From Chlamydiota bacterium (GTDB lineage Bacteria > Auribacterota > JACPWU01), in contig JACOUC010000036.1 in the NCBI GenBank assembly GCA_016178055.1, forward strand, positions 9 through 64,008: a DNA stretch of 64,000 nt, written 5' to 3'. Of the stretch, positions 15,901 to 35,498 are shown piece by piece. How positions within the stretch are numbered: the first letter of the stretch is position 1; each line of letters starts with the position of its first letter. The translations under genes were made by a program, and so were the position numbers. A model generated the notes under the pieces. It was not told the origin of the DNA. It worked only from the letters and a program-made list of their open reading frames with translations, and made no database searches.

Positions 15901-18900
15901 AAATTCTTCCTTCATGAGAATATTGGCTTGAATCTCTTTAAAAGGCTTACCGTAATGCTGTTCCAGCTCTTTTTGAAAAAGTTTAATAAAAAGGTCCCGC
16001 GTCTTAGGATCAGCCGTTTTTAATCGATCCGCCAGAAATTCACGTAAGGGTCTTTCCTCACACCAGCCCAGGGCACCAAAACCAAAGAATGCAGATATGG
16101 GAGACGTCATTGCGAGGAGCGAGAGCTCCGAAGCAATCCCAGCTTTGCGCAAAACAGAGATGGCTTCGTCGGCTTCACCTCCCTGCAATGACGGCCAAAC
16201 ATAGCTTCCATCCAAAGACGGAAGAGGCAAAAGATTCACCAACCCTAAAGCCAAATTAATTTTGACTCCCCAAATAAGCGGGCCCATTAAAAATCCAAAA
16301 GGCCCAACGGCATTAGCGGCAAGGGCCCCTACCGCAAAGACCACGGCCAAAATTAAATTACTCACCGGCCCCGCAAGCGCTACTTTCTTCATCGAAGATT
16401 CTGAGAGCCGCCAAGAAGAAATAGGAACGGGCTTTAACCACCCGATCGGAATCCCGATCAAAAGCGTAGACGCTAAAAAAGAAATCGTCCCCCAAAAATC
16501 TAAATGCCTCCAAAACCTGAGCAACGTCAATCGCCCCGCCTCCTCAGCCGTCCGATCCCCCAACCTCGCCGCCAGCCATCCATGGGCATATTCATGAAGA
16601 ATCGCGGAGAAGAGAATAATTGCTATCAATGGAACAGCACTTCCTAAAAGGCCAGGGTTGGCCACAAATACAGCGGCAAAAGGAATGCACAAAAAGACAT
16701 AAATATTCTTGACTTGCCCCGGACTTGATTCTATGATTTTTCTCATGAATGAGAAAAAGACTCCAAAACCTATTCCTACTCCAGAAGAAGCCCAGCGATA
16801 CAACTCCGTTATTATTGAGGAGATGAGAAGCCAATTTAAGGTTTTTGGCGAAGGATTAACCGGTTTTAGAAAAGAAACGAATGCACGATTTGACAGACTC
16901 GAAGAAGTCGTTATGGATACGCGTGAACGTGTCTCTAGGGTAGAGAATAGACTCACCAAAGTTGAAGAGAGCAACGCTCGCATTGAATCTGACATTCGCC
17001 TCATCAAAAACCAAATCAAAGTCAAGGTGGATTTAGAAGAATTTAAAGTACTTGAAAATCGGCTTGTGATCGTTGAAAAAAGACTGGCTGCCCTTCCCAT
17101 CTCCGCTTGATTAGCGCTATTTGAAACTCTTCTGGAACCCCCTATACTGCGTATCAAGCCATCCACATCCCCCACATATCCTCCTAATTCCAAGGCTCTT
17201 CTAAGGTAAATTTCTATTGAATGAGCCGTTTGTGCGTGACTCAGGAAAAATCGCATCTGATCTTGCGTGAGCGTAGTCACGCGTTCAAGCCAAAGAAGAG
17301 GGTTTTTCTGCAATTCATCGGAAACTTCCGAACGATTTTCCTTTCCCGCTTTCCTCTCTATTTCTCGAATAACCCCTTCTAAATCTCTCGCCACCTCCTC
17401 CCAATTTTCTAAATTAAGTTCTCGGGCCAAAACCTCTTGATCCCTTTGCCATTGATCAAATTGGAGAGCCGTAAGCCCCGCAGCAAAAGCAGCCTCTTCT
17501 CCCAACGAGCGTATTTCCTCAAGAAAATGAAGCCTCGCGATTTTCTGAAGGGTCGGAAGTGAGGCTTCTTTTAAAGCATCAGGAGCGCCCGAAATAAATC
17601 CAAATTGCTCTTTCATCTTCCTAAAATAGGCGCTGCGATCGTCATGACCCGTCATACGAGGGGCAATGACCCAATAACCGATCTTGGCCTCTTTCAATTT
17701 CTTCGTGATCCCCTCCGTATGAAACCCACCCACCACAAGCGCTGCACAGGGAAGTTTCTTTTCCTGAATTAATTTAAGAGATTTTTCGAACATGATTTTG
17801 TCTCGTTTTAGAACTTGAGTGTAGAATTTTTGGGAGAGGTTAAAGATTTCTCCAAAATCAGGAGATTCATAGTCTATTGCTTCCTTTTTAGCTAATTCGC
17901 CAAGTTGAATTAGAAAATCTCCGATAAAGTCGTTCGGGCCTGCTTGGCTCGAGGCTCGAGGATAATACTTTGCTCGAGGCTCGAAGCTCGAGGCTCGAAG
18001 TAAATGCTTCTCCAGTTTTTGCTTTTGCCTCGAGCCTCGAGCTTCGAGCCGTTTTATGTCTTCCCTACTTCCTTCCATCGCAATCACACGCCTGAGTAGG
18101 TCATAGTCTTTTTCTAACGCCAGCAGCTCTTTCGCCTGAGGCGTTGTCGCCAAATTTTCAACGAGTTCTCCTTCGAGGTTTTTAATTTCTTCATCCAACT
18201 TCTCCCAAGAGATTTGTTTTAGGAGAGACATTTGTTGAATAAGGAGTTGAAGATTGGGATATGGAGCTGATTTCTCGACAGGCTCGAAACGTTTATTAAT
18301 TCTGTTATTGGAGTGCTTCTCGACTGCGCCTCTCGCTCCACTATCGTTTCTCGACGCGTTTCGACTAATGTCGAAACTTGCTTGAAAACTAAATTTATTG
18401 TTCGAGCGTAGTCGAGAACCTTCCTTCGCGTCCTCTACCTCCTCCTGGCCCCTCCTTGTGGTTTGCGCCGTGTTAGGCTCCAACCACTTCCTCGTCCACC
18501 CGCTACGGCGGGTACCCGGACTTGGTCGCAAGGAAGGGAGATTATTTCCCTCTAGCTTCGAGCCTCGAGCCTCGAGCATTCCTAAGTACTTGCTTAGGAA
18601 CAAATAATGCTCTTCATCACTGGTTCTGCCCAGCCGATGCTCTAAGATATTTCTCAAAACTTCATTGAGTTCTTCTTTTGGAAGCTTCTTCTCTAGTTCA
18701 GATAAAAATAAGAGGTATTCAGACTCAATTTTTGATGCGTCCGTTTTCTTTTCGAGTGCTTGGAGTCGAAGGTAGAAATCAAGCTGGGGGTAGTTTTGGC
18801 TCGAAGCTCGAGGCTCAAGGCTCGAGGAGGAAAGAGGAAGAGATTTATTTTCTACATTTTCAGTTTTTCCTTTTGTCTTTGCTTTTGCCTCGAGCTTCGA

Positions 18901-19887
18901 GCCTCGAGCCTTCAGCCCGTTTTCCGCTTCTAGCTGCTTTACATATTCCCCCATCTCTATCTTATGCTCCCTATACTTCTCCCTTTCTTCAATGAGCTCT
19001 ATCAATTCCTTTGGATAAATTTTTTCGGACAAACCCCTAAATATATCATCTAAACCCTGCCAGACATGCTCTTGTAAATTCCTCTCCTTCAAAAGCTCCC
19101 CCATCGCCCTTAAATTCTCGACATAATCAGACAGTTCTTCCACCCCCACTCCCTTAACCTTTTTTGGCCCTTCCTTAACGAGAAAAGTCTCCACCCCATC
19201 GAGTTCATTTTTATCCAAGAATTTTTTGAGAAGAGAAGCTAAAACCCTCTGATCTGGGAAAGACCAGAAAAAGGACATGTCCATTTCACCATCAGCAGCC
19301 TCACAAAATATATGAAATGGTTTAAAATTCTCAGATACGGCTCTAACTTTGAGATTGTTTTGGCTCGAAGCTCGCCCGCCTCGCCTGACTCGTTCGTCAG
19401 ACGAGTCGCCGCCTTTGGCGAGCCTCGCCCTTTGGCGGGAGGTGGGAGGCTCAAGGCTCGAGGTAAATACTTCTGCTTTCTTTGCTTTTGCCTCGAGCTT
19501 CCAGCTTCGAGCCTCGAGCCCGTTTTTTTCTTCGAGCTTCGAGCCTCGAGCCTCTAGCTGCTTTTGTAAAATTTTCAACATCCTCTGAATATTCTCTTGC
19601 GCCTGAGAATTACAATGAATATCTTCAATAATGAAGAGATGAGGTGCTCCGGGGACATAGAATTGATCGGTCACTTCCCCTATTTCATGGGGAATACGCA
19701 TCTCCTCCAAAACTGAACTTAAATCGAGGGATTTGCGATCCACAGGATTAAACTCATTTACAGAAGTGACTGCTTTCAAATGAGTTGCGAATTGAGTATT
19801 CTGGCCAACAGAATAAGAAATGTCATAAAAGAGGAAGGAAAAACAAACGCACAAACTAATCAATGAACGCATAAACCTGACAAGCAT
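3931..19887 (-). CDS. Giant composite ORF1. Order: signal/TM, ChaN/TraB-like N-domain, M50 protease, Clp-type 2xAAA+, beta-propeller-like segment, large unknown region, GT4 glycosyltransferase, SAM-methyltransferase-like block, unknown C-terminus. It may be four fused cistrons.
   Basis: No stop from 19998 to 3931 (5355 codons). Likely start is ATG 19887 (MLVRFMRSLISLCVCFSF, signal-like), preceded by GAGAGGGG. The blocks are separated by stretches that are antisense to real plus-strand genes. In the ORF1 frame these stretches translate as S/T/L/R-rich low-complexity sequence. Confidence 0.55.
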   Translation of the reverse strand: MLVRFMRSLISLCVCFSFLFYDISYSVGQNTQFATHLKAVTSVNEFNPVDRKSLDLSSVLEEMRIPHEIGEVTDQFYVPGAPHLFIIEDIHCNSQAQENIQRMLKILQKQLEARGSKLEEKNGLEARSWKLEAKAKKAEVFTSSLEPPTSRQRARLAKGGDSSDERVRRGGRASSQNNLKVRAVSENFKPFHIFCEAADGEMDMSFFWSFPDQRVLASLLKKFLDKNELDGVETFLVKEGPKKVKGVGVEELSDYVENLRAMGELLKERNLQEHVWQGLDDIFRGLSEKIYPKELIELIEEREKYREHKIEMGEYVKQLEAENGLKARGSKLEAKAKTKGKTENVENKSLPLSSSSLEPRASSQNYPQLDFYLRLQALEKKTDASKIESEYLLFLSELEKKLPKEELNEVLRNILEHRLGRTSDEEHYLFLSKYLGMLEARGSKLEGNNLPSLRPSPGTRRSGWTRKWLEPNTAQTTRRGQEEVEDAKEGSRLRSNNKFSFQASFDISRNASRNDSGARGAVEKHSNNRINKRFEPVEKSAPYPNLQLLIQQMSLLKQISWEKLDEEIKNLEGELVENLATTPQAKELLALEKDYDLLRRVIAMEGSREDIKRLEARGSRQKQKLEKHLLRASSFEPRAKYYPRASSQAGPNDFIGDFLIQLGELAKKEAIDYESPDFGEIFNLSQKFYTQVLKRDKIMFEKSLKLIQEKKLPCAALVVGGFHTEGITKKLKEAKIGYWVIAPRMTGHDDRSAYFRKMKEQFGFISGAPDALKEASLPTLQKIARLHFLEEIRSLGEEAAFAAGLTALQFDQWQRDQEVLARELNLENWEEVARDLEGVIREIERKAGKENRSEVSDELQKNPLLWLERVTTLTQDQMRFFLSHAQTAHSIEIYLRRALELGGYVGDVDGLIRSIGGSRRVSNSANQAEMGRAASLFSTITSRFSSTLNSSKSTLTLIWFLMRRMSDSMRALLSSTLVSLFSTLETRSRVSITTSSSLSNRAFVSFLKPVNPSPKTLNWLLISSIITELYRWASSGVGIGFGVFFSFMRKIIESSPGQVKNIYVFLCIPFAAVFVANPGLLGSAVPLIAIILFSAILHEYAHGWLAARLGDRTAEEAGRLTLLRFWRHLDFWGTISFLASTLLIGIPIGWLKPVPISSWRLSESSMKKVALAGPVSNLILAVVFAVGALAANAVGPFGFLMGPLIWGVKINLALGLVNLLPLPSLDGSYVWPSLQGGEADEAISVLRKAGIASELSLLAMTSPISAFFGFGALGWCEERPLREFLADRLKTADPKTRDLFIKLFQKELEQHYGKPFKEIQANILMKEEFIQKKLDEAAKKLTQILGRIGRQLAQDAEKNPDIKSNLDSEDAEHAASHAVPEALDEMINSGAYTQERFREALTPRLIEKLREMGKMGADDEATVRKLIEECRLPDGVSVVEAIGNWLDEFKILELLQSSNEGGPTSSIVMKPAHTHSHGDGKGEHTHAQHILKIGSVLLAIGTGLLGWIFGSPVFRLSIDAIQDFEILARASSGLSASRNSDAMRRSGLSRETRIASSDDMAQASSIASNGSKGWRLWRWLALSNSVLSGTLTEIIWNIRLIIDRIEASLSRFFLLKRNLSSNRVVRQMSTLERPSSALEIMSNGAFHNSRPVPVSSSSDSQLTMTSVSRMSVGNEGTELSHLAVEGGTFLSDPPGRGLTSRRDEAAAATQERFGNISTSSRKTFRLQFSHQFRQLLQFRGHFKASFIKIVPWGASMINGRSSIASLLFTVVAGLLGYLLGVPFLRLSVGESPMEPLDDYLKRIGLNADVDLGNGQKKKEWQVLKDYTYDLALEADSARPLVGRSEEIGRIMARLATPVRIKNSLVLVGPRGVGKTALVELVSLKLARNNLDGPLKGRRIIALKAGALGSTLSEMSDNLKTLIPLLEKTNNNVILFIDEIHFLLKGPSNSIDTRIADLLKPILEKGRVTVIGATTDPEYKAYIEQDKPFEDRFTKVSVPEPSVQETETILTGAKTYLEGKFSLKIDRATIKAAVKCAQRYLSEKSQPRKAIDVLEGTMGRVNARRNSLEMTKEDFLNRLHSVINEYIDLKKEGVPDTDPTVIEVHNQMIGILEAYHTILSRLSNLRKDIRITQADVQEYLADMTGMAVGALDQDDAAKYLNIEGELHKRVVGQEDAIKAVAQAIRRARAIPGERKRPMGVFFMAGPTGVGKTELAKALAQFLFDSDQALTVFNMSEYQESHQKSRLIGSPPGYVGFQEGGQLTEAVRKRPYSVLLFDEIEKAHSDVLTTLMQVFDEGKLTDGQGNTVDFKNTLIIMTSNIGMEKIQGPLRTLAEELKTAETEEATQAIITQMNDLIAQTVETSIRAKYKPEIINRIDHIIACNVITPENIRQIARILLKRELSDFTENKFKVEVADNVYETLAQRGYDIINGARPLRRLIEQEIRDPLSNRILEEMAQGHILNGGTFHIDINPERGFQFTFDPAPPSDNRLSASQAVAPIFQKIMGLVGQTVDSQNDGVEPAVLSNLIDSERTAPKTDQMNGQYGCFWARTPLPAPPQQRQRSNHNDPQLKDAAITPFTQALPLPEEQRPIAKDWLNEFVRIAKTHNPGRFIELGSELKEGHFNIQIVREGRMSANEEKFLKTHLTGEYPDIEAARQEALRLRESGESNVRNKLLELKAQMASIPGCQLGFTEGENEVTYWLRMECTEAPKVVIVPEPVRDETGSGADSTTTTITADSAGATVTPPSSPSRKRGKKGSVTSTASDAPLGTTTPRSPDSLLTEEAKERIIKRYREYMGKKLVHILVSPDGRTVLTMRFDRTETSWGGDQYNYYLERTRYWSGQVWNVETRELLETFYGGKNWVRSAKFSEDGSQVLTTNGDGSSKIVWQLQTSQSPSLALSEEEPSSGNIIGPEVTPDEEAQWRREIEEQSDKVRSSHEPVVTLVEERSRALAGRLGSEIWSTLVQQGIENDEIVKVLAALQNPREAFKWFEARVLSREKYFLGSESALAVNLMQFLEAEEKSTGISDLVDEATLHEALERTRLTHPQIIQLTDKIFNREGKNPLGKALRRFIEAHILSGETALPAASTLQPLVVRRENVHQRITEEVRQALLSEEIGTLGKLIEGAIQSQVDQLLFLTAVNFVILQDRTLLERYQSKLNILKTKMPSTFSQTLEIYQRLSQAMEKMPDNASMAQGGRICHYDLYRAGQWRQGDQWDVPRDRNDLTLAQSRNAVEALLMKNLETGEGNILLDSLQDELGGRKLSLDDIEFPVQVIRLQEGVYQNIYFILTTLKQTKEVIPLVMVMARDAQEKSRVTSSEYQALLSHRGDAELVEVLRDGEVETQEGKVSAYTSRFINGRDEIQYISPHHAWANRIPPGYLLVNTSLPGKWGAFVEPGDMINTLAAMGRFLVRYYNPEAQTLIDGFRINAGDVGVDVRDLTAAQGRASVISGREMKFSLITWRGTKRGIDPSHFLDYYFNLHWLGSLREGEKGYRHESLGQGHDAILRTGVMQGFLLEMMKKHGNKEGLELAKVWLNHYINEIQARKLSEKPLFKVQELKAFISRYVDPALGSFSSGKGVLLPSYWLASQVTRPLDWFWVNVLGRKSLSRDFKEDFVVPFIEEIFIWALSLGSPVLYAVLRVVFVWGHERRLEAKNELEARSSREKQRTEEVFTSSFEPRASSGFSSSFRRIFIPTLISLVSLLGFFRTGLSSWEMILVVGITFYLVWNLYGARYLARAANFDSRRATRSSRILYSSKSTFTLTRFLMILRSASIRTLLSEIFSTLISPFSSRVSIFPSLISILSTLVSTFSSRVSILSTLVSIRALPSSTPRTRTRKLASSFSIRSNFLSILAKPSSVFSRSPDNPSPKTLNWPRRSSRMTATWLDFITESFSDLFSSMAGIVGQMLRQVKGKSQRAAIFLVVGMGLLILTSLIQPDIALAGLLPDIQPTSVVSNLFSNILRLWPVLAMGLIAHIVSNHWVTVTGALYQKGVLGDDANDDQGSQTSPEGSITVTQGEASTTENLSQLKEAFSGKVLVFYAPGYLEMNGVSTYMDHLLLLLAQEIKGLKIHVIVLGGGQRVSPLLKRDGGKVVVSSELEGVVQIHMTRQNNEPGQDLADEVNGLLRKILQEEGKVDLIVSESSFHYAGNAFNAFGKQNKIPVIQEFHSGPWRLLDRVPEDLVGDSRFFSPNTVNILKKADLALTVSESVQKRFQKDFGVEVECLYPVADLSFYDPRYVTTTKTDDLRVNHSLSGKTVILMSGRPVERKGYDVVLDAILGLSNDLKRNAAVVIAGFTEDMLRDGDDDYNRQFRESLYEKIQHLREEGVLIVLLGPLSAEEMRDWYFLSDIVAMPSRRDEPLKNEETFGLVSLEAQSMGKPVIVSRSGGLPETVVDGETGCIVESGNVEAFRGKIEELIRHPNLRVTMGQRARQVAGKRFSREANLERHLKLFLGVMRRTNILTEIKRIYTEINHQTIEEKNILEGIAAIFGLDFANDDERHREAGKILSIVAALPETRRKEVLENIVRFLKFMTWHASGEHRFMPLALAVVNMFEGRDIFSREPIVRFIQINPQFRYLLDMYHLYANPFGVEAEWIPTHLPSLHLSIPHKDHYRWLDIGSAPKAYGAPTLNLLRKTFEEALPGTHFSYEGTDAFFPSYSLESGEIRESAFNSADFRERGQTDVEGVTYLDARIPQNDVMSESFMQNRSAESFDFISLSMTLHHLKKPDEGVERRFLAKGVDWVDESGNAIQPFYLLTQTQQEVVERLLKRLSHQGVCFLNLPRGEIYFENQNEDLYLVIQRVGENQYCLYQEAIPFQPEYEVYSSVEFLITGLSFPGYNTSGIRSLYPDETNAFFTEINKWLYRADLLVCHYQGRDAFPWASVRAAVRAINERKGLVEIFSAYLHLVPEDEPLKSRILEGVVQFHKQNLIQNFESWAQENITAGLSLREWMESHTVYDILWTLGDATHSFAKETSLSENDLKTLDAVLVELMIQVKHPDLIREAEAHQAKTERLSLELEARRLLDEEGLGQTVQNIEQELEGKVERGEFQQSSITLDFSGDVTWSIRQDMNGASFEMEIGEMTAQLNSQTLGVTHVQMSRPRDLSLALAYLIGLKTKLRHFQKKFLAALKPSADQKPVCLFPDMDLPVQSLGGLSPTEFIKESETGNRKMVFVERKRSREEFDTLCREHQIPQDRVLFLTDLNEQDARSAIDTKVRELFRGKEAEKWLLGHRENRNLYEPIQGLFDKFMYGQEMVSVMAAICYGDAEAITRALLQHGFKPDELEGLLVDVDEHQVTPFANVSRWHDQMEKFREATEMTERSM
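5560..6070 (-). other. ORF1 block: class I SAM-methyltransferase-like region
   Basis: WLDIGSAPKAYGAPT (motif I-like) and FDFISLSMTLHHL (motif III/post-II-like). Weak call made by eye. Confidence 0.35.
6530..7800 (-). other. ORF1 block: GT4-type (GT-B) glycosyltransferase domain
   Basis: VLVFYAPGYLEMNGVSTYMDHL at the N-terminal end of the block. GRPVERKGYD and the EX7E-type ETFGLVSLEAQSMGKPVIVSRSGGLPETV motif lie toward its C-terminal end. Confidence 0.75.
8162..8190 (+). promoter_or_regulatory. Sigma70-type promoter giving a leaderless transcript of the nested coiled-coil gene (copy 1)
   Basis: TTGACT (8162..8167), 17-nt spacer, TACGAT (8185..8190), 7 nt, then ATG at 8198. The geometry is identical to 16709..16737. 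Confidence 0.6.
8198..8695 (+). CDS. Coiled-coil protein of unknown function (copy 1), nested antisense in ORF1
   Basis: MEENKSEN... with six near-perfect heptads (IETKVDK IETRLEK VETKVDK IEIRLGK IETRLEK GEIKVEK). It is a paralog of 16745..17110, sharing QFKVFGEGL and the conserved tail N.RIE.D.R.IKN..KVKVDLEE.K.LE.R. The TTG at 8162 used by the ORF track is the -35 box. Confidence 0.7.
   Translation: MEENKSENDSVMKSSHVAVILEDLRGQFKVFGEGLSGLREKTEEGFARIDKKFDRIENELANFRVRVRGVEDGNARIETKVDKIETRLEKVETKVDKIEIRLGKIETRLEKGEIKVEKISESNVRIEADLRIIKNLVKVKVDLEEYKILEDRVALLESKFAALAR
8848..8945. repeat. In-frame palindromic (GCTCGAG)n hairpin element
   Basis: Left arm 8848..8876, loop TAAATACTTCTTCGGTTCTTTGCTTTTC, right arm 8905..8928. 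In ORF1 it translates as LEAKNELEARSSREKQRTEEVFTSSFEPRASS. Confidence 0.85.
12480..14420 (-). other. ORF1 block: Clp/Hsp100-type double AAA+ ATPase
   Basis: Walker A motifs GPRGVGKT (~14264..14290) and GPTGVGKT (~13255..13280). Also ILFIDEIH, VVGQEDAI, LLFDEIEKAH and GARPLRRLIE motifs. A single TM helix precedes the block (MINGRSSIASLLFTVVAGLLGYLLG). Confidence 0.85.
14615..14643 (+). promoter_or_regulatory. Sigma70-type promoter of the nested PIN module
   Basis: TTGATC (14615..14620), 17-nt spacer, TACTAT (14638..14643). It is followed by the SD AAGGAGG (14651..14657) and ATG 14665. Confidence 0.5.
14665..14853 (+). CDS. Small protein upstream of the PIN gene, putative cognate antitoxin
   Basis: Perfect SD AAGGAGG 7 nt before the ATG. 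The ORF ends 4 nt before the PIN start. No recognisable antitoxin fold by eye. Confidence 0.45.
   Translation: MSAKLQELTELMGELEPKSLSRRSRNVAKALLGSCRGLITPRGKSSTRWIRQERSSLHSKVR
14858..15325 (+). CDS. PIN-domain (VapC-like) ribonuclease, nested antisense in ORF1
   Basis: LILDTDVIVNWL at the N-terminus, LLEL, DPFDAILLACA and SRD acidic-residue motifs of PIN domains. GTG start, with AAGGTGAG upstream. Confidence 0.8.
   Translation: MPSLPTLILDTDVIVNWLSEELETGTGRELWKAPFDIISKAEEGRSSVLICLTTLLELRFLLRRKKRLSDASIRSIINRMFQIISVNVPDKTELLRANHLQSLHPLDPFDAILLACAMSSEEAILVSRDKPLLRIASEFLEALNPEDALAKISKS
16150..16746 (-). other. ORF1 block: M50 (site-2 protease) family metalloprotease
   Basis: HEYAHGW at 16582..16596 (HExxH within a TM helix) and the NLLPLPSLDG motif. 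The block begins at an in-frame Met at 16746 (MRKIIESSPGQVKNIYVFLCIPF). Confidence 0.8.
16709..16737 (+). promoter_or_regulatory. Sigma70-type promoter giving a leaderless transcript of the nested coiled-coil gene (copy 2)
   Basis: TTGACT (16709..16714), 17-nt spacer, TATGAT (16732..16737), 7 nt, then ATG at 16745. Confidence 0.6.
16745..17110 (+). CDS. Coiled-coil protein of unknown function (copy 2), nested antisense in ORF1
   Basis: MNEKKTPKPIP...IIEEMRSQFKVFGEGLTGFRKE...KVKVDLEEFKVLENRL. Paralog of 8198..8695. Confidence 0.7.
   Translation: MNEKKTPKPIPTPEEAQRYNSVIIEEMRSQFKVFGEGLTGFRKETNARFDRLEEVVMDTRERVSRVENRLTKVEESNARIESDIRLIKNQIKVKVDLEEFKVLENRLVIVEKRLAALPISA
17946..18050. repeat. In-frame palindromic (GCTCGAG)n hairpin element
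   Basis: Arms 17972..18000 and 18028..18050, loop TAAATGCTTCTCCAGTTTTTGCTTTTG. Translated as LEARGSRQKQKLEKHLLRASSFEPRA. Confidence 0.85.
18290..18577. repeat. Composite GC-richer insertion ending in a (CCTCGAG)n arm
   Basis: Contains the 20-mer GTTCGAGCGTAGTCGAGAAC (18400..18419), an internal IR CCTTCCTTCGCG/CGCAAGGAAGG, and the arm 18550..18577. ORF2 and ORF3 have no counterpart in their N-domains. Confidence 0.6.
18798..18917. repeat. In-frame palindromic (GCTCGAG)n hairpin element, long-loop variant
   Basis: Arms 18798..18827 and 18888..18917, with a ~60-nt loop similar to that of 54885..55004. Confidence 0.85.
19362..19556. repeat. In-frame (GCTCGAG)n element with a nested GC-rich hairpin insertion
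   Basis: GGCTCGAAGCTCG ... [GACTCGT-TCGTCAG-ACGAGTC hairpin] ... GGCTCAAGGCTCGAGG TAAATACTTCTGCTTTCTTTGCTTTTG CCTCGAGCTTCCAGCTTCGAGCCTCGAGCC. Confidence 0.8.
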
Positions 19888-20069
19888 GACAACCCCTCTC
19901 GATCTTGAAAAAATCAATAATGACTGCAAGCTTACATAAGTAAAGACACTTTGGGGACTAGAAATGTAAAAATAAAAATTTAGAAATTTCCATCTCACAA
20001 TTGATAAAGGAAGGTTTCTTATAGAATAACCAGCTATTCCTTCAAGCCCTTACATAATGATTTCCTCTA

Positions 20070-24214: not shown

Positions 24215-24245
24215 ATTTCGAATCTCGGATTTCGAATTTCGAATT
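24215..24245. repeat. Left heptamer-repeat arm of the four-helix-bundle cassette
   Basis: ATTTCGA ATCTCGG ATTTCGA ATTTCGA ATT. Its reverse complement shares an 18-19 nt perfect core with 24617..24649. Confidence 0.8.
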
Positions 24246-24255
24246 GAAAAACAAA

Positions 24256-24618
24256 ATGAATTCTCAAGAGTTAAAAACGAGGACTAAACTGTTTGGACTT
24301 AAAATCATTCTTTTGGTTGAAAAATTGCCACGTTCAAAAACATTGGATATTATAAATCGTCAACTTCTACGCTCTGCAACATCCATCGGGGCAAATTATA
24401 GAGCTGCATGTCGTGCAAGATCCAAAGCGGATTTTGTGTCAAAAATTGGCATTGTCGAAGAAGAATCCGATGAATCAGTTTATTGGCTTGAATTGCTTAT
24501 AGAAACTAAGCTGGTTACTGATACCCAAATACATGTCTTGCTTAAAGAAGCAAACGAGTTAACAGCGATCTTTACCGCAACAGGAAGAACTACAAAAGAA
24601 AAACAGAAAAATGAATAA
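24256..24618 (+). CDS. Four-helix-bundle protein (23S rRNA intervening-sequence protein family)
   Basis: LPRSKTLDIINRQLLRSATSIGANYRAACRARSKADFVSKIGIVEEESDESVYWLELL fits the family pattern. ATG at 24256; the track start 24244 is a TTG inside the repeat arm. Confidence 0.8.
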   Translation: MNSQELKTRTKLFGLKIILLVEKLPRSKTLDIINRQLLRSATSIGANYRAACRARSKADFVSKIGIVEEESDESVYWLELLIETKLVTDTQIHVLLKEANELTAIFTATGRTTKEKQKNE

Positions 24619-26113
24619 ATCCGAGATTCGAAATCCGAAATCCGAAATCAAGAGGCTTTCCCTCGAATCCCTTGCCCAAAATGCCCTCGATGAGGCTATT
24701 TCGCTTGGAGCTTCCTACGCCGATGTCCGATTAATTGAATCCACCAGCCGAAATCTGGCCACCAAAAATGGAGTTCCAACCAGTTTGGATATTGAAGAAT
24801 CGCAAGGCCTAGGAATCAGGCTTCTTTATCATGGGGCCTGGGGATTTGCGGCTACGCATGATCTTTCAAATGAAAATGTATTACGGACAGCCTTTAAAGC
24901 CATTAAAATTGCTAAGGCCAGCGCCCTCACAAAAAAAGAGCCTGTTCGACTGGCCGAAGAAAAACCGATTCAAACAGAATGGTCCAGCCCCTTCTCCATC
25001 GATCCTTTTTCAGTTCCTATTGAAGAGCAACTTAATTTTTTATTACAAATCGATGAAGAAATCAGAAAAACCAAAGGGATCAGCATCTCTGAAACATCCA
25101 TGCATTTTCATAAAGAACACAAACTTTTTCTCTCGAGCGAAGGAAGCCGTATTCTCCAGCACTTTATCACCAGTGGAGCAGGGTTTGTTGCGATGGCTTT
25201 TCGAGATGGAGAATTGCAAAAACGTTCTTACCCTAATTCCTTTGGGGGACAATACCAAAAAAAGGGTTATGAGCTCATTCAAGAGCTAGAACTTCTCAAA
25301 AACGTTCCAAGAATCGCTGAAGAAACCGTTCGCCTTTTAGATGCCCCCAGTTGCCCTGTTGGAGAAAAGGATCTCATTTTAGACAGCTCTCAACTCGGTC
25401 TTCAAATCCATGAATCGGTTGGACACCCTATTGAGCTCGATCGAGTGCTCGGAAGTGAGGCCAATTACGCCGGAAAAAGTTTTCTTACGCTAGATCAATT
25501 AAAAACCCTTCAGTACGGATCCCCTATTGTTCACGTCGTCGCTGACGCTAGACTTTCACATGGTCCAGGTCTCGGCACGTTTGGCTATGATGATGAGGGC
25601 GTCCCTGCACAAGGAACGGATATTATTCGAGAGGGACAATTTGTAGGCTATCTCTCCTCTCGCGAGACCGCTCAAGATATCGGCGAAACACGCAGCAATG
25701 GAACCATGCGAGCTGAAAGCTGGAATCGGATTCCATTAATCCGCATGACCAATATTAGCCTCATGCCAAAAAATTGGGACTTTGAAAACTTAATTGCAGA
25801 CACAAAAGATGGAATTTATTTAGAAACAAATCGAAGCTGGAGCATTGATGATCGTAGGCTCAATTTTCAATTTGGAACTGAAATAGGATGGGAAATTAAA
25901 AATGGCAAGAAGATGAATAGGGTCAAAAACCCAATTTATTGGGGAATCACACCCGAATTCTGGAACGCCTGCGATGCCATTTGTAGTGATCGATATTGGA
26001 CGCTCTGGGGAACTCCCAATTGTGGCAAAGGACAACCCTGCCAAACCATGGGAACAGGTCACGGTTCTAGTCCAGCTAGGTTTCGCGGGATAAAGGTTGG
26101 AGCCAGTCATTGA
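24611..26113 (+). CDS. tldD: TldD-family metalloprotease
   Basis: 500 aa. The HESVGHPIELD (HExxxH) motif and overall TldD/PmbA architecture are present, and it pairs with the PmbA-like gene downstream. The only in-frame start lies inside the cassette arm. Confidence 0.8.
   Translation: MNKSEIRNPKSEIKRLSLESLAQNALDEAISLGASYADVRLIESTSRNLATKNGVPTSLDIEESQGLGIRLLYHGAWGFAATHDLSNENVLRTAFKAIKIAKASALTKKEPVRLAEEKPIQTEWSSPFSIDPFSVPIEEQLNFLLQIDEEIRKTKGISISETSMHFHKEHKLFLSSEGSRILQHFITSGAGFVAMAFRDGELQKRSYPNSFGGQYQKKGYELIQELELLKNVPRIAEETVRLLDAPSCPVGEKDLILDSSQLGLQIHESVGHPIELDRVLGSEANYAGKSFLTLDQLKTLQYGSPIVHVVADARLSHGPGLGTFGYDDEGVPAQGTDIIREGQFVGYLSSRETAQDIGETRSNGTMRAESWNRIPLIRMTNISLMPKNWDFENLIADTKDGIYLETNRSWSIDDRRLNFQFGTEIGWEIKNGKKMNRVKNPIYWGITPEFWNACDAICSDRYWTLWGTPNCGKGQPCQTMGTGHGSSPARFRGIKVGASH
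24617..24649. repeat. Right heptamer-repeat arm of the four-helix-bundle cassette
   Basis: AAATCCG AGATTCG AAATCCG AAATCCG AAATC. Translated as the first residues of TldD (KSEIRNPKSEI). Confidence 0.8.
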
Positions 26114-26119
26114 CAAGAA

Positions 26120-26178
26120 GATCTATAAACGCGGATCTAACGCAGATCTATAAACGCAGATCAAATGCGGATCTATTT
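26120..26178. repeat. Left repeat arm of the GxxExxY cassette
   Basis: Tandem GATCTATAAACGCG / GATCTAACGCA / GATCTATAAACGCA / GATCAAATGCG units, complementary to the right-arm units GATCCGCGTTT. Confidence 0.75.
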
Positions 26179-26655
26179 ATGGCTATAGAAGAAAAATTGC
26201 TGTATCAGGAGATTACATATGAGATTAGAGGAGCGTGTTTCTGGATATGGAAGGAATTCGCAAGTGCATTCAAAGAATCTATCATTGATAAAGCCCTCAC
26301 GGAGGAACTCAAGAAAAGGGGACTTAAGGTTGATAACCAAAAACACATAGACATTTTCTACAACAAAAAGAAAGTAGGAACTTATATTCCTGATAAAGTT
26401 ATCAATGATTGTGTGCTCGTTGAACTCAAAAGAAAACCTTTTTTACTACGGCAAGATAAAGAACAATTGTGGCATTATTTAAAAGGATCCGAATACAAAT
26501 TGGGTTTGCTAATCAACTTTGGAGAAAACGAACTAGAGTTTGAACGCATCGCCTACGACACTAAAAGAAGATCAAAGAGAGATCAGCGCCAGATCCGCGT
26601 TGCAGATCCGCGTTTGATCCGCGTAGTAGATCCGCGTTTGATCCGCGAACAATGA
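26179..26655 (+). CDS. GxxExxY protein (PD-(D/E)XK-like family)
   Basis: MAIEEKLLYQEITYEIRGACF... and LGLLINFG are typical of the GxxExxY family. The C-terminal 25-30 aa (IRVADPRLIRVVDPRLIREQ) are read from the right repeat arm. The track start 26110 is a TTG. Confidence 0.75.
   Translation: MAIEEKLLYQEITYEIRGACFWIWKEFASAFKESIIDKALTEELKKRGLKVDNQKHIDIFYNKKKVGTYIPDKVINDCVLVELKRKPFLLRQDKEQLWHYLKGSEYKLGLLINFGENELEFERIAYDTKRRSKRDQRQIRVADPRLIRVVDPRLIREQ
26581..26650. repeat. Right repeat arm of the GxxExxY cassette
   Basis: Five units of (CA)GATCCGCGTTTG type. The arm ends at the ATGA stop/start overlap with pmbA. Confidence 0.75.
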
Positions 26656-29085: not shown

Positions 29086-29244
29086 TATAACTCCCTTTTT
29101 AGCAATGAGTTATCGATGTTCAAAACTGTTTAATGTCAGGATTCATTTTCCCTTGACATCGCCCACTCAGCAGCGTGAGAATGGGGGTAAGAGGTCTTAT
29201 AAAGAGACCTTGTGGTGTTAGTAAAAGCAGAATAAAGCAAGGTT

Positions 29245-29345
29245 ATAGCCCGATAAAGGCAAACTATTCGAAAGAATGGGGCGCAAAGTTACAGATCCGA
29301 AGATTTTGAGTTCGTGAATCGTATAACATTCCACGAGTCAGGAAC
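29245..29345 (+). promoter_or_regulatory. c-di-GMP-I (GEMM-I) riboswitch aptamer
   Basis: 29258..29288 reads GGCAAACTATTCGAAAGAATGGGGCGCAAAG. This matches the core of the V. cholerae Vc2 aptamer as I recall it (GGCAAACCAUUCGAAAGAGUGGGACGCAAAG) at 28 of 31 positions. Two of the three differences keep the GAAA-capped stem paired. A second hairpin follows. Confidence 0.7.
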
Positions 29346-29403
29346 CCAGAGTCAGGGTGGCTGAACTGCCAAAGGCTGTGAACTTAGAGTTCCTTTGTGC
29401 ACA

Positions 29404-29435
29404 CCTGTTCTTCGAATAGAAGAACAGGTTTTTTT
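29404..29435 (+). terminator. Intrinsic terminator (riboswitch expression platform)
   Basis: CCTGTTCTTC-GAATA-GAAGAACAGG followed by TTTTTTT, 22 nt upstream of the pseudopilin ATG. Confidence 0.8.
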
Positions 29436-29456
29436 ATGGGCACGAAGAGGAACTCT

Positions 29457-30494
29457 ATGAAAAAGCGACGGGTCAAAGAATTTAGTCTGGGATTCAGTCT
29501 GATCGAAGTTGTTTCAGGCATTGCGATTATTCTAAGCATTGCAGGACTTCTCTTATCTGCAATTACATCCGCACGAGAAAAAGGACTCCAAGCAAAATGC
29601 ATCAGCAACCAGAAGAATTTAACCGCAGCGCTCATCATGTATGCTGTCGACCATGAAAATTTTCCGACAGAACTTGCCCAACTAAAATTATCCCCTCTCC
29701 AAAAAGAACGTCTATCTGGAGCATGGGTTTACGCTGATTCTTCCGTACCATTTTACTACGACTTACAATTTGGAGTCACTCAATGTCCTAAGGTACAAGG
29801 TAAAATTACAGATCCAACACCCACTTACTCCTATGGAATTAATGAATGGGTTCAAGGAAAAAGTCTAAGCCTTATTACGAACCCTTCCGAAACCATCGTC
29901 ACCTCTGACAGTCTTAACAAGGCCGCTATCTCAAGCGTCCAGGATGTCGACCCTCGCCACATGGGAGGAGCCTTTGCCGGCTTTGCGGACGGCCATGTAG
30001 AGTTAGTCAAATTCTCTCAACTTGAAACCTTTTTCACTTCAAGTGACACATCCTCTTCTTTAAACACGACTGACACTTTCCCCTCTCTTCCTGAAGGGGA
30101 TACAACAGGCGGCATTCTTTTTTACCGTGGCGGGGTCCCCACTGAGGAACCAGTAGCCGATGAGAATGAAGATGTTGAAGACAATGATGACTCTGCTGAA
30201 AGTGAAGACAGCCCTCCTTCAGACGAAGATGAAACAGAAGGGAAAAATTCTGAAGATGAAAATGAAGATGAAAATATTGAAGAACCCATCGAAGAAAATG
30301 ACGAAGAAGATCTTGAGGATCCTACTAAAGACGAAGAAGACCTTGAGGATACCGAAAATGATGATGATTCGGGAGAGGCTCACGATAATAACGGACATGG
30401 CAATAATGAGGACCACGATGACGAAGACAATCCTGGTCAAGGTAATGGAGATCACGGACATGACCACGACGAAGATACCGAGGACCTCCCATGA
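29457..30494 (+). CDS. Prepilin-type N-terminal cleavage/methylation protein (H-X9-DG / DUF1559-like pseudopilin) with an acidic His-rich tail
   Basis: MKKRRVKEFSLGFSLIEVVSGIAIILSIAGLL is a class III signal. H-MGGAFAGFA-DG is the H-X9-DG motif. The last ~120 aa are a D/E/H/N low-complexity tail. Confidence 0.8.
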   Translation: MKKRRVKEFSLGFSLIEVVSGIAIILSIAGLLLSAITSAREKGLQAKCISNQKNLTAALIMYAVDHENFPTELAQLKLSPLQKERLSGAWVYADSSVPFYYDLQFGVTQCPKVQGKITDPTPTYSYGINEWVQGKSLSLITNPSETIVTSDSLNKAAISSVQDVDPRHMGGAFAGFADGHVELVKFSQLETFFTSSDTSSSLNTTDTFPSLPEGDTTGGILFYRGGVPTEEPVADENEDVEDNDDSAESEDSPPSDEDETEGKNSEDENEDENIEEPIEENDEEDLEDPTKDEEDLEDTENDDDSGEAHDNNGHGNNEDHDDEDNPGQGNGDHGHDHDEDTEDLP

Positions 30495-30579
30495 TGGCAT
30501 CGATGATGACGAGATGGGAGGAGGAAACAAAAGTGGAGATGATGAGGATACTACTTCTAAAGGAAAGAAAAAATGAGTG

Positions 30580-31797
30580 TTACCGATCCCGCCCAGGTCT
30601 ACCTACTCCTGAGTCTCCCCCAGACATTCCAGGGTCATGAACATCAGTTCCAGAATGATCCCCTATCCCTCTACCCTCAGGTGCGTGAGATTCAATAGGC
30701 CCTATACCTCCATCCCCACCATGGGAAGGGCCTGGACTTTCAACAGCATTGGAAATGGTTTCCCTCAAAGATGAAGCAACACTCTCTCTTACATGACCTG
30801 ATGGAGCTCCAGAACCTAAATTTGAAGATGAAGGAAGATTAAGATTCAAATGAGCAGCTCCTTGATTTCTATCAAAATCCGGCCTCGAAAAATCCATTCT
30901 TCCCAACCCATTTTTAAAATCATTTCCTAATGTCTTAAAGTCATTCCCCTGAAGTTTCAGTGCATCCTTAAATTCTTGAAGGTCTTTGAAATCAAATTTT
31001 CCTCTGAGATCTTCTTTGATATTCTCCGCCCAATTTACATTTTGATGATTCTCTTGATATTCTTCATGAAGCTCTTTTAATTTCTTTTTAATTTTATGCC
31101 TTACCTTGCCATACCCTGGCCTTCCCTCTTCCATATTTTGACTGCCAGAATTAATAGTATCTGTCAGTCCTCCCGTTGAAGAACCTCCTCCAAACGAAGT
31201 CGGAGAACTCCAAAAATTACTACCTCCCACAAATCCTTCGTAATAATAATTATTTGAGGAATCACCCCCTTGAGCACTATCCTGGGTTGTATTTAAAGAT
31301 GAAGAATCACCCCCTGAACTCCCTGAACTACTCGTTCCTGAACTGCTCGTTCCGCCACTGCTTTCATTACTTGTATCCGTATTTGTATTTGAGTTTTCTT
31401 GATGATGTTTAATCAATTTTTTAATGACCTTTCGCCTACGTTGACGACGTTCTTTGGGAGATAATTTGCCATGGCCTAAAAGAGTTCCTTCCTTCAAATT
31501 TTTTAAATTTGGATTTTTCGGATTTCCTTTATTTCCATCTCCCTTTTTTCCTTTTCCTCCCGGCTGATCGCTATGAACCTCGCCCTCGCCCTTCTGACCA
31601 TGATGGTCTTGAACAGTTTCCGAACGCTTTTCTTCATGAGATCCCTCTCCTCCAGAAGACGGGTTATTACTCTGATTCACCTGTTCTCCAGGAGAGGAGG
31701 CCAGAGGGTCTCCTTCTCCAGAAGGCCCAGCGTCTGAAGAGAATCCACTGATGACAAACAAGGTGAGAAAAACAATTAGAGAAACCTTTCGTCCCAT
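30580..31797 (-). CDS. Secreted low-complexity G/S/N/H-rich protein, unknown function
   Basis: Start chosen at MGRKVSLIVFLTLFVISGFSS (signal-like), with GGGAGA 7 nt upstream and TATAAT further upstream. The remainder is compositionally biased. Confidence 0.45.
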   Translation of the reverse strand: MGRKVSLIVFLTLFVISGFSSDAGPSGEGDPLASSPGEQVNQSNNPSSGGEGSHEEKRSETVQDHHGQKGEGEVHSDQPGGKGKKGDGNKGNPKNPNLKNLKEGTLLGHGKLSPKERRQRRRKVIKKLIKHHQENSNTNTDTSNESSGGTSSSGTSSSGSSGGDSSSLNTTQDSAQGGDSSNNYYYEGFVGGSNFWSSPTSFGGGSSTGGLTDTINSGSQNMEEGRPGYGKVRHKIKKKLKELHEEYQENHQNVNWAENIKEDLRGKFDFKDLQEFKDALKLQGNDFKTLGNDFKNGLGRMDFSRPDFDRNQGAAHLNLNLPSSSNLGSGAPSGHVRESVASSLRETISNAVESPGPSHGGDGGIGPIESHAPEGRGIGDHSGTDVHDPGMSGGDSGVGRPGRDR

Positions 31798-31885
31798 AAA
31801 AGAATCTCCCATTACATTATAGCATGTAAAAGGAAAGGCGGTAGGGTAGCGGTAAATTTTACATAATATACTAGAGAGCAATAAG

Positions 31886-32230
31886 TTAAATATAAAAAGA
31901 GGCTTGCATTTGTGTTGATTTATTACTTGATGATTTGTCTTTTAGGAGGGGATCAAACTGACTTTCAATCACTTCCTTCAAATCTTTCATCTCGACATGG
32001 CGATACCAGATATTATCAGGGAAAATCATCACATTAGGCCCTTGAGCACAAAGATCAAAACACCCCGACCGACTCACACGGACTTTCCCTTTTAGACCAT
32101 GATCTTTCACATAAGACTTTAAATATTCGCAAATCTCTTCCCCTGCTTGAGCGCAAGACACTTCACCATTTTTACGATGGTTCGTGCAGATAAAGATATG
32201 CTTTTGATAAGGATTTTTAGAGGCTTTCAT
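31886..32230 (-). CDS. Thioredoxin-like [2Fe-2S] ferredoxin
   Basis: HIFICTNHR...C and GCFDLCAQGPNVMIFPDNIWY give the four-Cys pattern of (2Fe-2S) ferredoxin-domain proteins. Confidence 0.7.
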   Translation of the reverse strand: MKASKNPYQKHIFICTNHRKNGEVSCAQAGEEICEYLKSYVKDHGLKGKVRVSRSGCFDLCAQGPNVMIFPDNIWYRHVEMKDLKEVIESQFDPLLKDKSSSNKSTQMQASFYI

Positions 32231-34768: not shown

Positions 34769-35215
34769 TTAAATAAACTTTTTTTTGAGTTTTTTTAAGA
34801 AATCTTCGATTTCACCCTGTTGCATTCTTTGATGATCAATCAAGGCACAATCAATGGCCTCAATTAAACTATTTTTTTCAGAGTAGTTTAGAACTAATTC
34901 ATGAACTACCTTGTCAAGCAGTGGAAGCTCTTCTCTTAAGACAGACCAAACAATATCGATATCAATCCCAAAATATTCATGCGTAATTTTATTTCTAAAG
35001 TCTACTATTGGGCGATATTGTTCATTCAAAATTTTATATCGAATCAAATTACCAATCGCTTCCCCTATCACTTGTAGTTCTCTCAAAACTGCATCGTATG
35101 ACCTAAAATCTCGCAAGAGCTCTTGCTTGGAGAAAAAACTGCGAACAAGGTGATTTACCTTATAAATAGCCACTAAAACATCAACAATATAATGTTCCAC
35201 ATCACGCTTAGGCAT
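34769..35215 (-). CDS. HepT/DUF86-family toxin (nucleotidyltransferase substrate-binding protein-like)
   Basis: The RNKITHEYFGIDIDIVW (RxxxHxY) motif. It overlaps the upstream MNT gene by 8 nt. Confidence 0.8.
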   Translation of the reverse strand: MPKRDVEHYIVDVLVAIYKVNHLVRSFFSKQELLRDFRSYDAVLRELQVIGEAIGNLIRYKILNEQYRPIVDFRNKITHEYFGIDIDIVWSVLREELPLLDKVVHELVLNYSEKNSLIEAIDCALIDHQRMQQGEIEDFLKKLKKKFI

Positions 35216-35498
35216 AAATCACATCTTTTTGAATACGACGGCGAATAAATTCTTTTAAGGAAGACTCAAGTCCAAGATCGACCTTTTTTTTGAAAGAAGA
35301 TTCAAGAAAATGGTTCAAATTAAAAAAACTCCTGAATTTATTTGGACTTACAATATCGACAAGAATATCAATATCACTCTCCTCACGAGCCTCATTTCGT
35401 GCGTAGCTCCCAAACAAACCGATGCTGACGACCCCAAAGTTTGTCTTAAGCTCTGCTTTATGTCTTTGAAGAAAATGGAGAATTTCGTCACGTGTCAT
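35208..35498 (-). CDS. MNT-type nucleotidyltransferase antitoxin
   Basis: The GLFGSYARNEAREESDIDILVD (GSxxRGx...DxD) motif. Confidence 0.85.
   Translation of the reverse strand: MTRDEILHFLQRHKAELKTNFGVVSIGLFGSYARNEAREESDIDILVDIVSPNKFRSFFNLNHFLESSFKKKVDLGLESSLKEFIRRRIQKDVIYA

Follow-up and report, generated by a model that had tools for sequence, protein, structure and literature searches.

We find that a single pilin-like gene of an uncultured groundwater bacterium is preceded by a genuine, canonical riboswitch for cyclic di-guanosine monophosphate (c-di-GMP) of class I (c-di-GMP-I, or GEMM-I), which most likely acts as an OFF switch. The element lies in a 64,000-nt stretch of contig JACOUC010000036.1 (hereafter the window, 64 kb), part of a groundwater metagenome-assembled genome (MAG) labelled 'Chlamydiae/Chlamydiota bacterium' (GCA_016178055.1). 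A second, near-identical MAG carries an identical leader. The gene downstream encodes a 345-amino acid (aa) pseudopilin with an H-X9-DG motif. The aptamer comprises the following parts, given in window positions and with the source of each assignment (MFE, minimum free energy fold).

29243-29381, + strand: c-di-GMP-I (GEMM-I) aptamer including the closing helix P1 (RF01051, our covariance model R1, MFE)
29243-29250 paired with 29374-29381, + strand: helix P1 (MFE of 29241-29386)
29258-29288, + strand: conserved 31-nt core GGCAAACUAUUCGAAAGAAUGGGGCGCAAAG, which contains a GAAA-capped hairpin
29258, + strand: G, equivalent to G20 (RF01051 model position 11)
29264-29279, + strand: first hairpin, P2 in the crystal naming and 'P1' in Weinberg 2007 (Rfam alignment, MFE)
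29285, + strand: A, equivalent to A47, the first A of the AAA linker (RF01051 versus RF03167 consensus)
29285-29287, + strand: AAA linker joining P2 and P3
29289-29367, + strand: second hairpin, P3 (Rfam alignment, MFE)
29369, + strand: C, equivalent to C92, in the unpaired 'GC' between P3 and P1 (RF03167 structure line, RF01051 alignment)

Scanning the window against Rfam 15 with cmscan returned RF01051 (c-di-GMP-I) at 29248-29373 (+), with 56.9 bits against a gathering score of 35 and an E-value of 1.8e-8. The alignment spans model positions 1-87 of 87 and is the sole above-gathering Rfam match in the 64 kb. This bears out an earlier interpretation made from the letters alone (the sequence-only reading), which had proposed such a riboswitch at this place and a GAAA-capped helix in its core. 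The helix is formed by the stem CUAUUC/GAAUGG (29264-29269 with 29274-29279), and its tetraloop occupies 29270-29273. Our own covariance model R1, trained on 32 GEMM-I aptamers from other phyla, gives the window aptamer 66 bits, and the fold of 29240-29460 has a z-score of -6.6 relative to shuffles. By the count in the sequence-only reading, the core presumably matches that of Vc2 at 28 of 31 positions; a firmer test of identity is the score of the covariance model. The AAA linker is present as well, and it is almost invariant between the two GEMM hairpins (PMC1950547).

The pairing of riboswitch and gene recurs in four independent samples, the window included. A word-based search of 5.8 billion proteins returned only two moderately close homologs of the pseudopilin, at 46% (L001) and 41% (L002) identity. 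Both are encoded on short contigs, and in both a GEMM-I aptamer, cut by the contig end, lies directly upstream, followed by a terminator and a U-run. A third homolog (L211, about 40% identity) has a complete aptamer and terminator directly upstream, and a further member (P0264, on L212) has no GEMM-I upstream. The riboswitch is thus present at four of the five subfamily loci, namely the window, L001, L002, and L211. The Rfam E-value, the fold z-score, and recurrence upstream of three homologous genes from unrelated samples together exclude chance. We are therefore all but sure that the window element is a genuine GEMM-I riboswitch.

The association does not extend to the wider protein family. 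An exhaustive hidden Markov model search matched 167,922 representative proteins at E ≤ 1e-3, which make up the vast prepilin/DUF1559 superfamily; whole-domain matches at E ≤ 1e-30 numbered only 25 representative proteins, and these make up the small subfamily, from which L211 and L212 were taken. We assembled 83 distant pseudopilin loci, of which 80 are metagenomic (≤35% identity; 71 with ≥250 nt upstream) and three are L003-L005; at least 74 of the 83 hold ≥250 nt of upstream DNA. GEMM-I was found at none of these 83 loci by a strict regular expression and our own covariance model, and a full Rfam scan of the 20 closest returned no family of any kind. As a generic background, we matched a genome collection with the first-hairpin pattern GGCAAACTNTTCGAAAGANNNGGNCGCAAAG, which is generic across phyla. 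Among the matches listed, at least 129 aptamers have the first-hairpin sequence of the window; two of them lie ahead of a prepilin gene, and none ahead of a gene for an H-X9-DG protein. The sequence-only reading had expected the element to tie c-di-GMP to the very large DUF1559/H-X9-DG family. The tie we observe, at four of five loci against 0 of 83, is confined to one small subfamily.

The promoter-like site, the expression platform between aptamer and gene, and the gene itself have the following parts.

29153-29158 and 29177-29182, + strand: promoter-like site, -35 TTGACA, 18-nt spacer, -10 GAGAAT (consensus scan)
29387-29401, + strand: bifunctional segment AGAGUUCCUUUGUGC (progressive folds, duplex energies)
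29393-29419, + strand: 3' strand of the antiterminator (MFE, pair list, inverted repeat I1)
29403-29435, + strand: intrinsic terminator (terminator scan, MFE)
29447-29451, + strand: Shine-Dalgarno (SD) sequence GAGGA (sequence; ribosome-binding region 29445-29459)
29457-29459, + strand: start codon ATG of MBI1870660.1 (345 aa)
29457-30494, + strand: pseudopilin gene, 345 aa (MBI1870660.1, locus tag HYS07_05630)

The promoter-like site, the terminator, the SD sequence, and the ATG all lie on the strand of the aptamer, in a 5' regulatory arrangement to the gene. At 10 of 12 consensus matches, the promoter-like site (29153-29182) is the best in the region; from this predicted site, transcription would begin some 55 nt ahead of the aptamer. 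A third aptamer on L001 also has TTGACA upstream at a similar distance. The terminator stem has 11 base pairs (29403-29413 with 29419-29429), five of them G-C, with a 5-nt loop, and T6 follows at 29430-29435. The sequence-only reading had described a 10-bp stem with T7; the two descriptions agree, since T29429 may be assigned to the stem or to the run. The spacing of 22 nt that it had given between terminator and ATG also holds (29435 to 29457). An in-frame ATG at 29436, immediately past the U-run, is a less likely start. The 5' arm of the terminator contains CCUGUUC in the window, L001, and L002 (three of three), and a close variant, GCCUGUUUC, occurs in L211. Among generic GEMM-I loci, the motif was found at one of 122, with a chance expectation of about 1.9. 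That the subfamily loci have this terminator-arm motif in common indicates that aptamer, platform, and gene were inherited together.

The platform can take up two sets of pairings that exclude one another in part. Positions 29393-29419 can pair with 29264-29288, that is with P2 and the core, in an interrupted 24-bp helix that occupies the terminator 5' arm and loop. Within it, CCUGUUCUUCGAAUAG (29404-29419) pairs with the first hairpin, its loop and both stem strands included (29264-29280), and CUUUGUGC (29393-29400), the 3' part of the bifunctional segment, pairs with GCGCAAAG of the core (29281-29288). When the transcript ends at 29419, this antiterminator fold has an MFE of -61.6 kcal/mol, compared with -48.1 kcal/mol for the best fold that preserves the aptamer. 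When the platform was shuffled with its dinucleotides preserved, 0 of 500 sequences equalled this gain of 13.5 kcal/mol (mean gain 3.3, SD 2.6). Furthermore, a repeat search detected the two arms independently as inverted repeat I1. The whole segment 29387-29401 can also pair with the SD region GCACGAAGAGGAACUCU (29440-29456), which buries the SD sequence at -23.0 kcal/mol (0 of 1000 shuffles). Both states thus make use of the segment, which in the antiterminator provides the strand opposite the core. The full-length MFE contains the folded aptamer, the terminator, and the SD-sequestering helix side by side.

Comparison with other leaders argues that the complementarity between aptamer and platform is selected. 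The duplex energy between the two is -28.4 kcal/mol in the window and -26.4 kcal/mol in L211 (0 of 500 shuffles in each case); the median of 64 generic GEMM-I leaders is -16.0 kcal/mol, and one of the 64 reaches -26.4. Generic leaders with a T-run have a stronger duplex (-17.4 kcal/mol) than those without one (-11.5 kcal/mol), and aptamer-invading antiterminators therefore appear to be a general GEMM-I design, of which the modelled window antiterminator is an extreme example. L211, whose aptamer is intact at the 5' end, shows the same antiterminator refolding as the window. In both of these leaders, 19 aptamer columns are platform-paired: 12 pairs are unchanged, a single pair is altered on one side only, and 6 carry compensatory changes. 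CUAUUC/GAAUAG of the window, for instance, corresponds to CUAUCU/AGAUAG in L211.

On this basis, we propose that the riboswitch is likely to act as an OFF switch through two layers. At low c-di-GMP, nascent 29393-29419 would pair with 29264-29288 to form the 24-bp antiterminator; the terminator 5' arm and loop would be consumed, and polymerase would read through. The anti-SD segment would be partly occupied at the same time, 29393-29400 by the core and 29388-29392 by the freed 3' strand of P1, and with the anti-SD tied up, the gene would be translatable. At high c-di-GMP, ligand would lock P1, P2, P3, and the core so that 29393-29419 could not invade. The terminator hairpin (29403-29429) would then form with its U-run, and transcription would halt 22 nt before the ATG; any transcripts that escaped would bury their SD sequence through pairing of 29387-29401 with 29440-29456. 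The net effect would be that pseudopilin is produced only at low c-di-GMP. Note that all seven functional class I riboswitches of Clostridioides difficile are OFF switches of the termination type (PMC6366702).

Several observations weigh against this proposal. At 29436, the terminator state is favored by about 5 kcal/mol even without ligand (-67.2 versus -62.2 kcal/mol), and it follows that the antiterminator can work only through kinetics, a point that folding energies are unable to prove. A kinetic trap lasting for the roughly 17 nt before the U-run is plausible in the model, because the antiterminator leaves no free toehold; the energy model itself ignores tertiary contacts and ligand energy. 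Aptamer-platform complementarity is weaker in L001 and L002 (35 and 43 of 500 shuffles), where the aptamer 5' ends are cut by the contig ends, and these two leaders apparently rely on local antiterminator hairpins in which the P1 3' strand takes part. As for the SD-sequestering helix, it is not a conserved feature: shuffle tests support it moderately in L001 (13 of 1000) and give non-significant results in L002 and L211, and we regard it as a locus-specific reinforcement. A clean apo state with the SD sequence free was not upheld either, since the antiterminated full-length fold lets the AUG region pair weakly with the freed U-run. In P3, the Rfam alignment shows a 44-nt insertion (about 29306-29349) in place of the 4-nt consensus loop, which the MFE folds as an extended irregular arm (about 29299-29354). 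The canonical 11-nt tetraloop receptor is not recognizable there, the consensus CUAAG...UAUG region reading CCGAAG...C-AGG, and affinity could be altered as a result. A similarly long P3 insertion occurs in L001 and none in L002 or L211; the receptor is near-canonical in L002 and not kept in L001 or L211. It is found in about half of GEMM instances and hence is not strictly defining (PMC1950547). Finally, production of c-di-GMP by the host is assumed. Regular expressions and Pfam found no GGDEF, EAL, HD-GYP, or PilZ domain in the 64-kb window, a result that is uninformative for the genome as a whole.

The opposite sign, an ON switch in which c-di-GMP favors read-through or translation, is known to arise where the terminator 5' arm overlaps the 3' hairpin of the aptamer. 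Terminators overlapping the second hairpin were reported for 78 of 322 GEMM instances, implying ON logic (Weinberg 2007, PMC1950547); class I riboswitches act either way (Bc2; Vc1 versus Vc2), and c-di-GMP turns ON a type IV pilin gene of C. difficile, but via a class II riboswitch (PMC6366702). The architecture of the window makes this quite unlikely. The terminator begins at 29403, 22 nt past the end of P1 at 29381, and has no nucleotide in common with the aptamer. Ligand binding therefore has no means of abolishing it: a folded aptamer leaves the terminator free, and coexists with it and the SD helix in the full-length MFE. Moreover, the sole strong alternative pairing destroys aptamer and terminator together.

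The sequence also predicts the ligand. A47 is a ligand-contact nucleotide in the Vc2 structures, and its equivalent in the window is an A. G20 reads one guanine of c-di-GMP, C92 forms a Watson-Crick pair with the second, and natural G20-to-A variants constitute the GEMM-Ib class, which binds cyclic GMP-AMP (cGAMP) or is bispecific (PMC6140456). The window has G at 29258 and C at 29369, the combination specific for c-di-GMP, and we predict from sequence that c-di-GMP is very probably the ligand. Other ligands, either 3'3'-cGAMP as in GEMM-Ib or the unknown ligand of the c-di-GMP-I-GGC family, are improbable, although three observations point toward them. First, a permissive scan gave the c-di-GMP-I-GGC model RF03167 58.9 bits, 0.1 under its gathering score of 59 and slightly above the score of the canonical model. 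Inspection of the alignments indicates that RF03167 probably scores high by leaving distal P3 unstructured and thus tolerating the insertion. Second, P3 is atypical, with its 44-nt insertion and without the 11-nt receptor. Third, the related L211 riboswitch has A at the G20 equivalent, the GEMM-Ib signature. However, the GGC-diagnostic column of the window (29285) is A, as in the canonical family: the window reads GGCGCAAAG, compared with GACGCGAAg in the variant consensus and GACGCAAAg in the canonical one, and we rejected c-di-GMP-I-GGC membership on this ground. Membership in GEMM-Ib (the cGAMP riboswitch) was likewise rejected, as 29258 is G, not A.

The L211 aptamer itself (L211:21-108, on European Nucleotide Archive contig ERZ24794679, upstream of P0254) reads AAUAGCAAAC and scores 66.5 bits with RF01051 despite its G20-to-A change. 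Judging by this position, ligand specificity may differ among orthologous cassettes.

It is about as improbable that the element is a decaying relic dead to regulation, with the terminator a constitutive attenuator, or only the SD helix mattering, and an aptamer that no longer switches. Thermodynamically, the terminator is the ground state whether or not the aptamer is present, some C. difficile class I riboswitches are non-functional (PMC6366702), the window contains no c-di-GMP enzymes that we could find, classical Chlamydia are without GGDEF and EAL proteins (PMC3663186), and degenerate copies do exist in relatives (for example, L001 1293-1389, 32.6 bits, without P3); but the window aptamer, unlike that true relic on L001, scores well above threshold with every conserved core position intact, its six compensatory changes relative to the leader of the 40%-identity homolog indicate ongoing selection on the switch, and the leader is identical in the second MAG.

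The regulated gene is monocistronic, because the next gene converges on it, and its product has the hallmarks of a prepilin-type protein. The N-terminus reads MKKRRVKEFSLG/FSLIEV (MKKRRVKEFSLG/FSLIEVVSGIAIILSIAGLLL, the slash marking the cleavage site), with the cleavage motif G12/F13-S-L-I-E17. It thus shows a class III signal peptide: a short basic leader, a G/F-x-x-x-E motif, and a hydrophobic alpha1 helix. In profile searches, residue 13 aligns to residue 1 of mature PilE1 (8pfb_G, E 5e-6) and GspG (5wda_A, E 6e-5), and E17 is nearly invariant in 32 relatives. A long N-terminal helix on an antiparallel beta-sheet forms a pilin-fold domain of about 190 aa, in which C48 and C110 are invariant. 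The protein is not a GspG equivalog, since TIGR01710 gives 23.8 bits against a required 88.85 and matches the N-terminal region only. No secretion or pilus machinery genes were found in the 64-kb window.

The sequence-only reading had called the target an H-X9-DG pseudopilin, and the prepilin leader and the motif H168-x9-D178-G179-H180, invariant in 32 of 32 subfamily members, confirm this. Its further description as DUF1559-like depends on a marginal match: PF07596 (SBP_bac_10, DUF1559) scores 24.6 bits versus a gathering score of 23.3, and only over profile positions 2-36 of 268 in the N-terminal part (residues 38-72), and the TIGR04294 H-X9-DG domain, at 16.7 bits, stays under its cut-off of 19. 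C-terminal to the pilin domain lies an acidic, His-rich, low-complexity tail of about 150 aa, which is made of imperfect tandem repeats (window 30150-30494). In the twin MAG (GCA_016196915.1, L210:1501-2685), the protein has 394 aa instead of 345, with one additional tail unit (about 46 aa); the leader and the remainder of the gene show no difference. P0264, from another sample, has a tail motif much alike, HGNNADHDDEDNAGQGGGNHG.

Among characterized systems, the closest counterparts are the functional class I riboswitches of C. difficile, such as Cd1 (Cdi-1-3), which belong to the same family, RF01051, and share the inferred chain from ligand to termination to OFF (PMC6366702). Their targets are likewise cell-surface or motility genes, but these are the flgB operon, zmpI, and others, not a pilin, and the host is of another phylum. 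In addition, the window has a statistically supported SD-sequestering helix, and the first hairpin and core lie 112 nt from the putative antiterminator strand that invades them, through unusually long complementarity. With Vc2 of Vibrio cholerae, the window aptamer shares a like G20/A47/C92 set, the GAAA-capped first hairpin, and the AAA linker; Vc2 has a tetraloop receptor and a short P3, whereas the window has a 44-nt P3 insertion and no recognizable 11-nt receptor. Vibrio class I riboswitches do not act via transcription termination (reviewed in PMC6366702), unlike what we propose here. Cdi-2-4 of C. difficile pilA1 is likewise a c-di-GMP riboswitch that directly governs a major pilin gene via conditional termination (PMC6366702), but its aptamer is of class c-di-GMP-II and its sign is ON. 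Furthermore, pilA1 is a bona fide type IV pilin gene with pilus genes downstream, whereas the window gene is monocistronic and belongs to an H-X9-DG pseudopilin-like group with a long acidic tail. GEMM-Ib of Geobacter shares the fold and the Rfam clan; L211 has its G20-to-A change, and the window aptamer, with G, is not GEMM-Ib.

Neither the occurrence of GEMM in the PVC superphylum nor a pilus-type target is new (PMC1950547). GEMM was described as common in certain orders of Firmicutes and 'Plantomycetes' (PVC group) and as tied to pili and flagella families, including cpaA, pilM, pilO, pilQ, and pulF (Weinberg et al. 2007, PMC1950547). That list does not include H-X9-DG/DUF1559-type pseudopilin genes, and the terminator arrangement common in that study overlaps the second hairpin (ON logic), which the window terminator does not (PMC1950547). 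Our literature search found nothing linking DUF1559 or H-X9-DG with a c-di-GMP riboswitch. What is new is the specific target family and the cassette-like behavior.

The genomic setting bears on the latter. Three relatives (L206, L207, and L209; TldD 77-83% identical) conserve the backbone GDE-TldD-PmbA-MqnA ... Suc_Fer-like-transketolase, and all three are without riboswitch or pseudopilin at the slot between MqnA and Suc_Fer-like. We thus rejected positional conservation of the riboswitch; in the window, riboswitch and pseudopilin gene together represent an accessory insertion. The slot (window 29086-31886) is variable in relatives, which carry AAA_14/DUF4143, AbiEii plus HEPN/NTase genes, or nothing there. 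Its occupants in the window are the riboswitch-pseudopilin unit and, in convergent orientation, a gene for a 433-aa low-complexity, probably secreted protein (30580-31881; no Pfam match). Around 29086-31886, we looked for signs of a mobile element in the form of flanking repeats or a shift in composition and detected neither.

Riboswitch-gene units also seem to be arrayed in tandem in L001 and L002, as their sequence suggests. We take riboswitch, terminator, and gene to behave as one heritable cassette, accessory here and apparently arrayed in relatives. On L001, the stretch after the pseudopilin gene (1293-1541) contains a degenerate remnant (P1 and first hairpin, 32.6 bits), a TTGACA promoter-like site at about 1419, and then the beginning of a third aptamer, which the contig end truncates. 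The L002 contig ends within the first 25 nt of a second aptamer located after the gene (L002:1254-1278). On L001, the database protein P0002 is called from a GTG inside the terminator hairpin, which gives it a probably spurious 17-aa N-terminal extension (L001:193-243); its true start is probably the ATG at L001:244 (MKNMRTAG/YTMLE), after GGAGGG. Tandem aptamers also occur in the generic set: six Atribacterota loci (L024, L034, L059, L083, L107, and L109) have two to three aptamers about 120-140 nt apart before a gene for a lipoprotein of about 210 aa. In the same set, many Armatimonadota aptamers (among L006-L125) precede proteins of about 100 aa that start MKIS... and may be FlgM-like.

Elsewhere in the window, three giant open reading frames (ORFs), all on the minus strand, occupy more than two thirds of the sequence. 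In one of 7012 aa (35563-56601), two Ser/Thr kinase domains are found along with PP2C domains in the C-terminal half, and the N-terminal 3506 aa match no Pfam family. Another of 2350 aa (56702-63754) has two kinase domains, and the third, of 5355 aa (3931-19998), has AAA/ClpB-like ATPase modules and a GT4 glycosyltransferase. A sub-threshold match to group II intron D1-D4 (RF02005, 29.2 bits versus 49, E 1.7e-4; 1-80, -) is cut by the window end and lies just downstream of a radical-SAM MqnC/CofH-like gene. Two small genes of the 23S_rRNA_IVP family (24244-24618, +) and the PDDEXK_3 family (26110-26655, +) lie before and after the TldD gene, their stops and starts overlapping with those of their neighbors. 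At the equivalent positions, relatives have just one of the two (IVP in L207, PDDEXK_3 in L206), which suggests that these are small selfish or defense-type inserts. A HepT-like (HEPN) ribonuclease and nucleotidyltransferase pair (34769-35498, -), a typical type VII toxin-antitoxin module, resembles a HEPN/NTase pair in the variable slot of L206. On L212, the contig of the riboswitch-less P0264, 3065-3141 (+) gives a sub-threshold match resembling a CRISPR direct repeat (RF01323, 20.8 bits versus 39). The host lineage carries an unverified phylum label, Chlamydiota, from NCBI. The FHA-GAF-PP2C protein P0015 (20287-21978, -), which is RsbU-like, has Candidatus Theseobacter exili (Auribacterota, PVC group; 34%) as its nearest named relative, followed by Aminicenantes and Acidobacteriota; the nearest relatives of TldD outside the clade are Acidobacteria.

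Taken further, these findings allow a broader reading, speculative and rather unlikely to hold in full, in which an uncultured PVC lineage devotes cyclic-dinucleotide riboswitches to the control of a small, growing family of pseudopilin cassettes. Each unit would consist of promoter, aptamer, CCUGUUC-type terminator, and gene, seen as arrays in L001 and L002 and as an accessory insertion in the window. Cassettes would duplicate and relocate as units, and their specificity would toggle between c-di-GMP (G20, as in the window) and cGAMP or both (A20, as in L211). If true, riboswitch and target gene would here provide a case from nature of co-evolution within one mobile module.

In other respects, the element is ordinary, and its riboswitch class is among the most widespread. 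The element offers a regulatory handle on the large, essentially uncharacterized H-X9-DG pseudopilin group, for one small subfamily whose pseudopilins are predicted to be made at low c-di-GMP. The window, L001, L002, and L211 together constitute a compact natural experiment on how expression platform and aptamer covary. The element also implies c-di-GMP signaling in an uncultured groundwater lineage that NCBI labels Chlamydiota. Pathogenic Chlamydia have no GGDEF or EAL proteins (PMC3663186), and if the broader reading above is true, this would be the first evidence for c-di-GMP signaling in a Chlamydiota-affiliated lineage, a phylum whose classical members lack such signaling.

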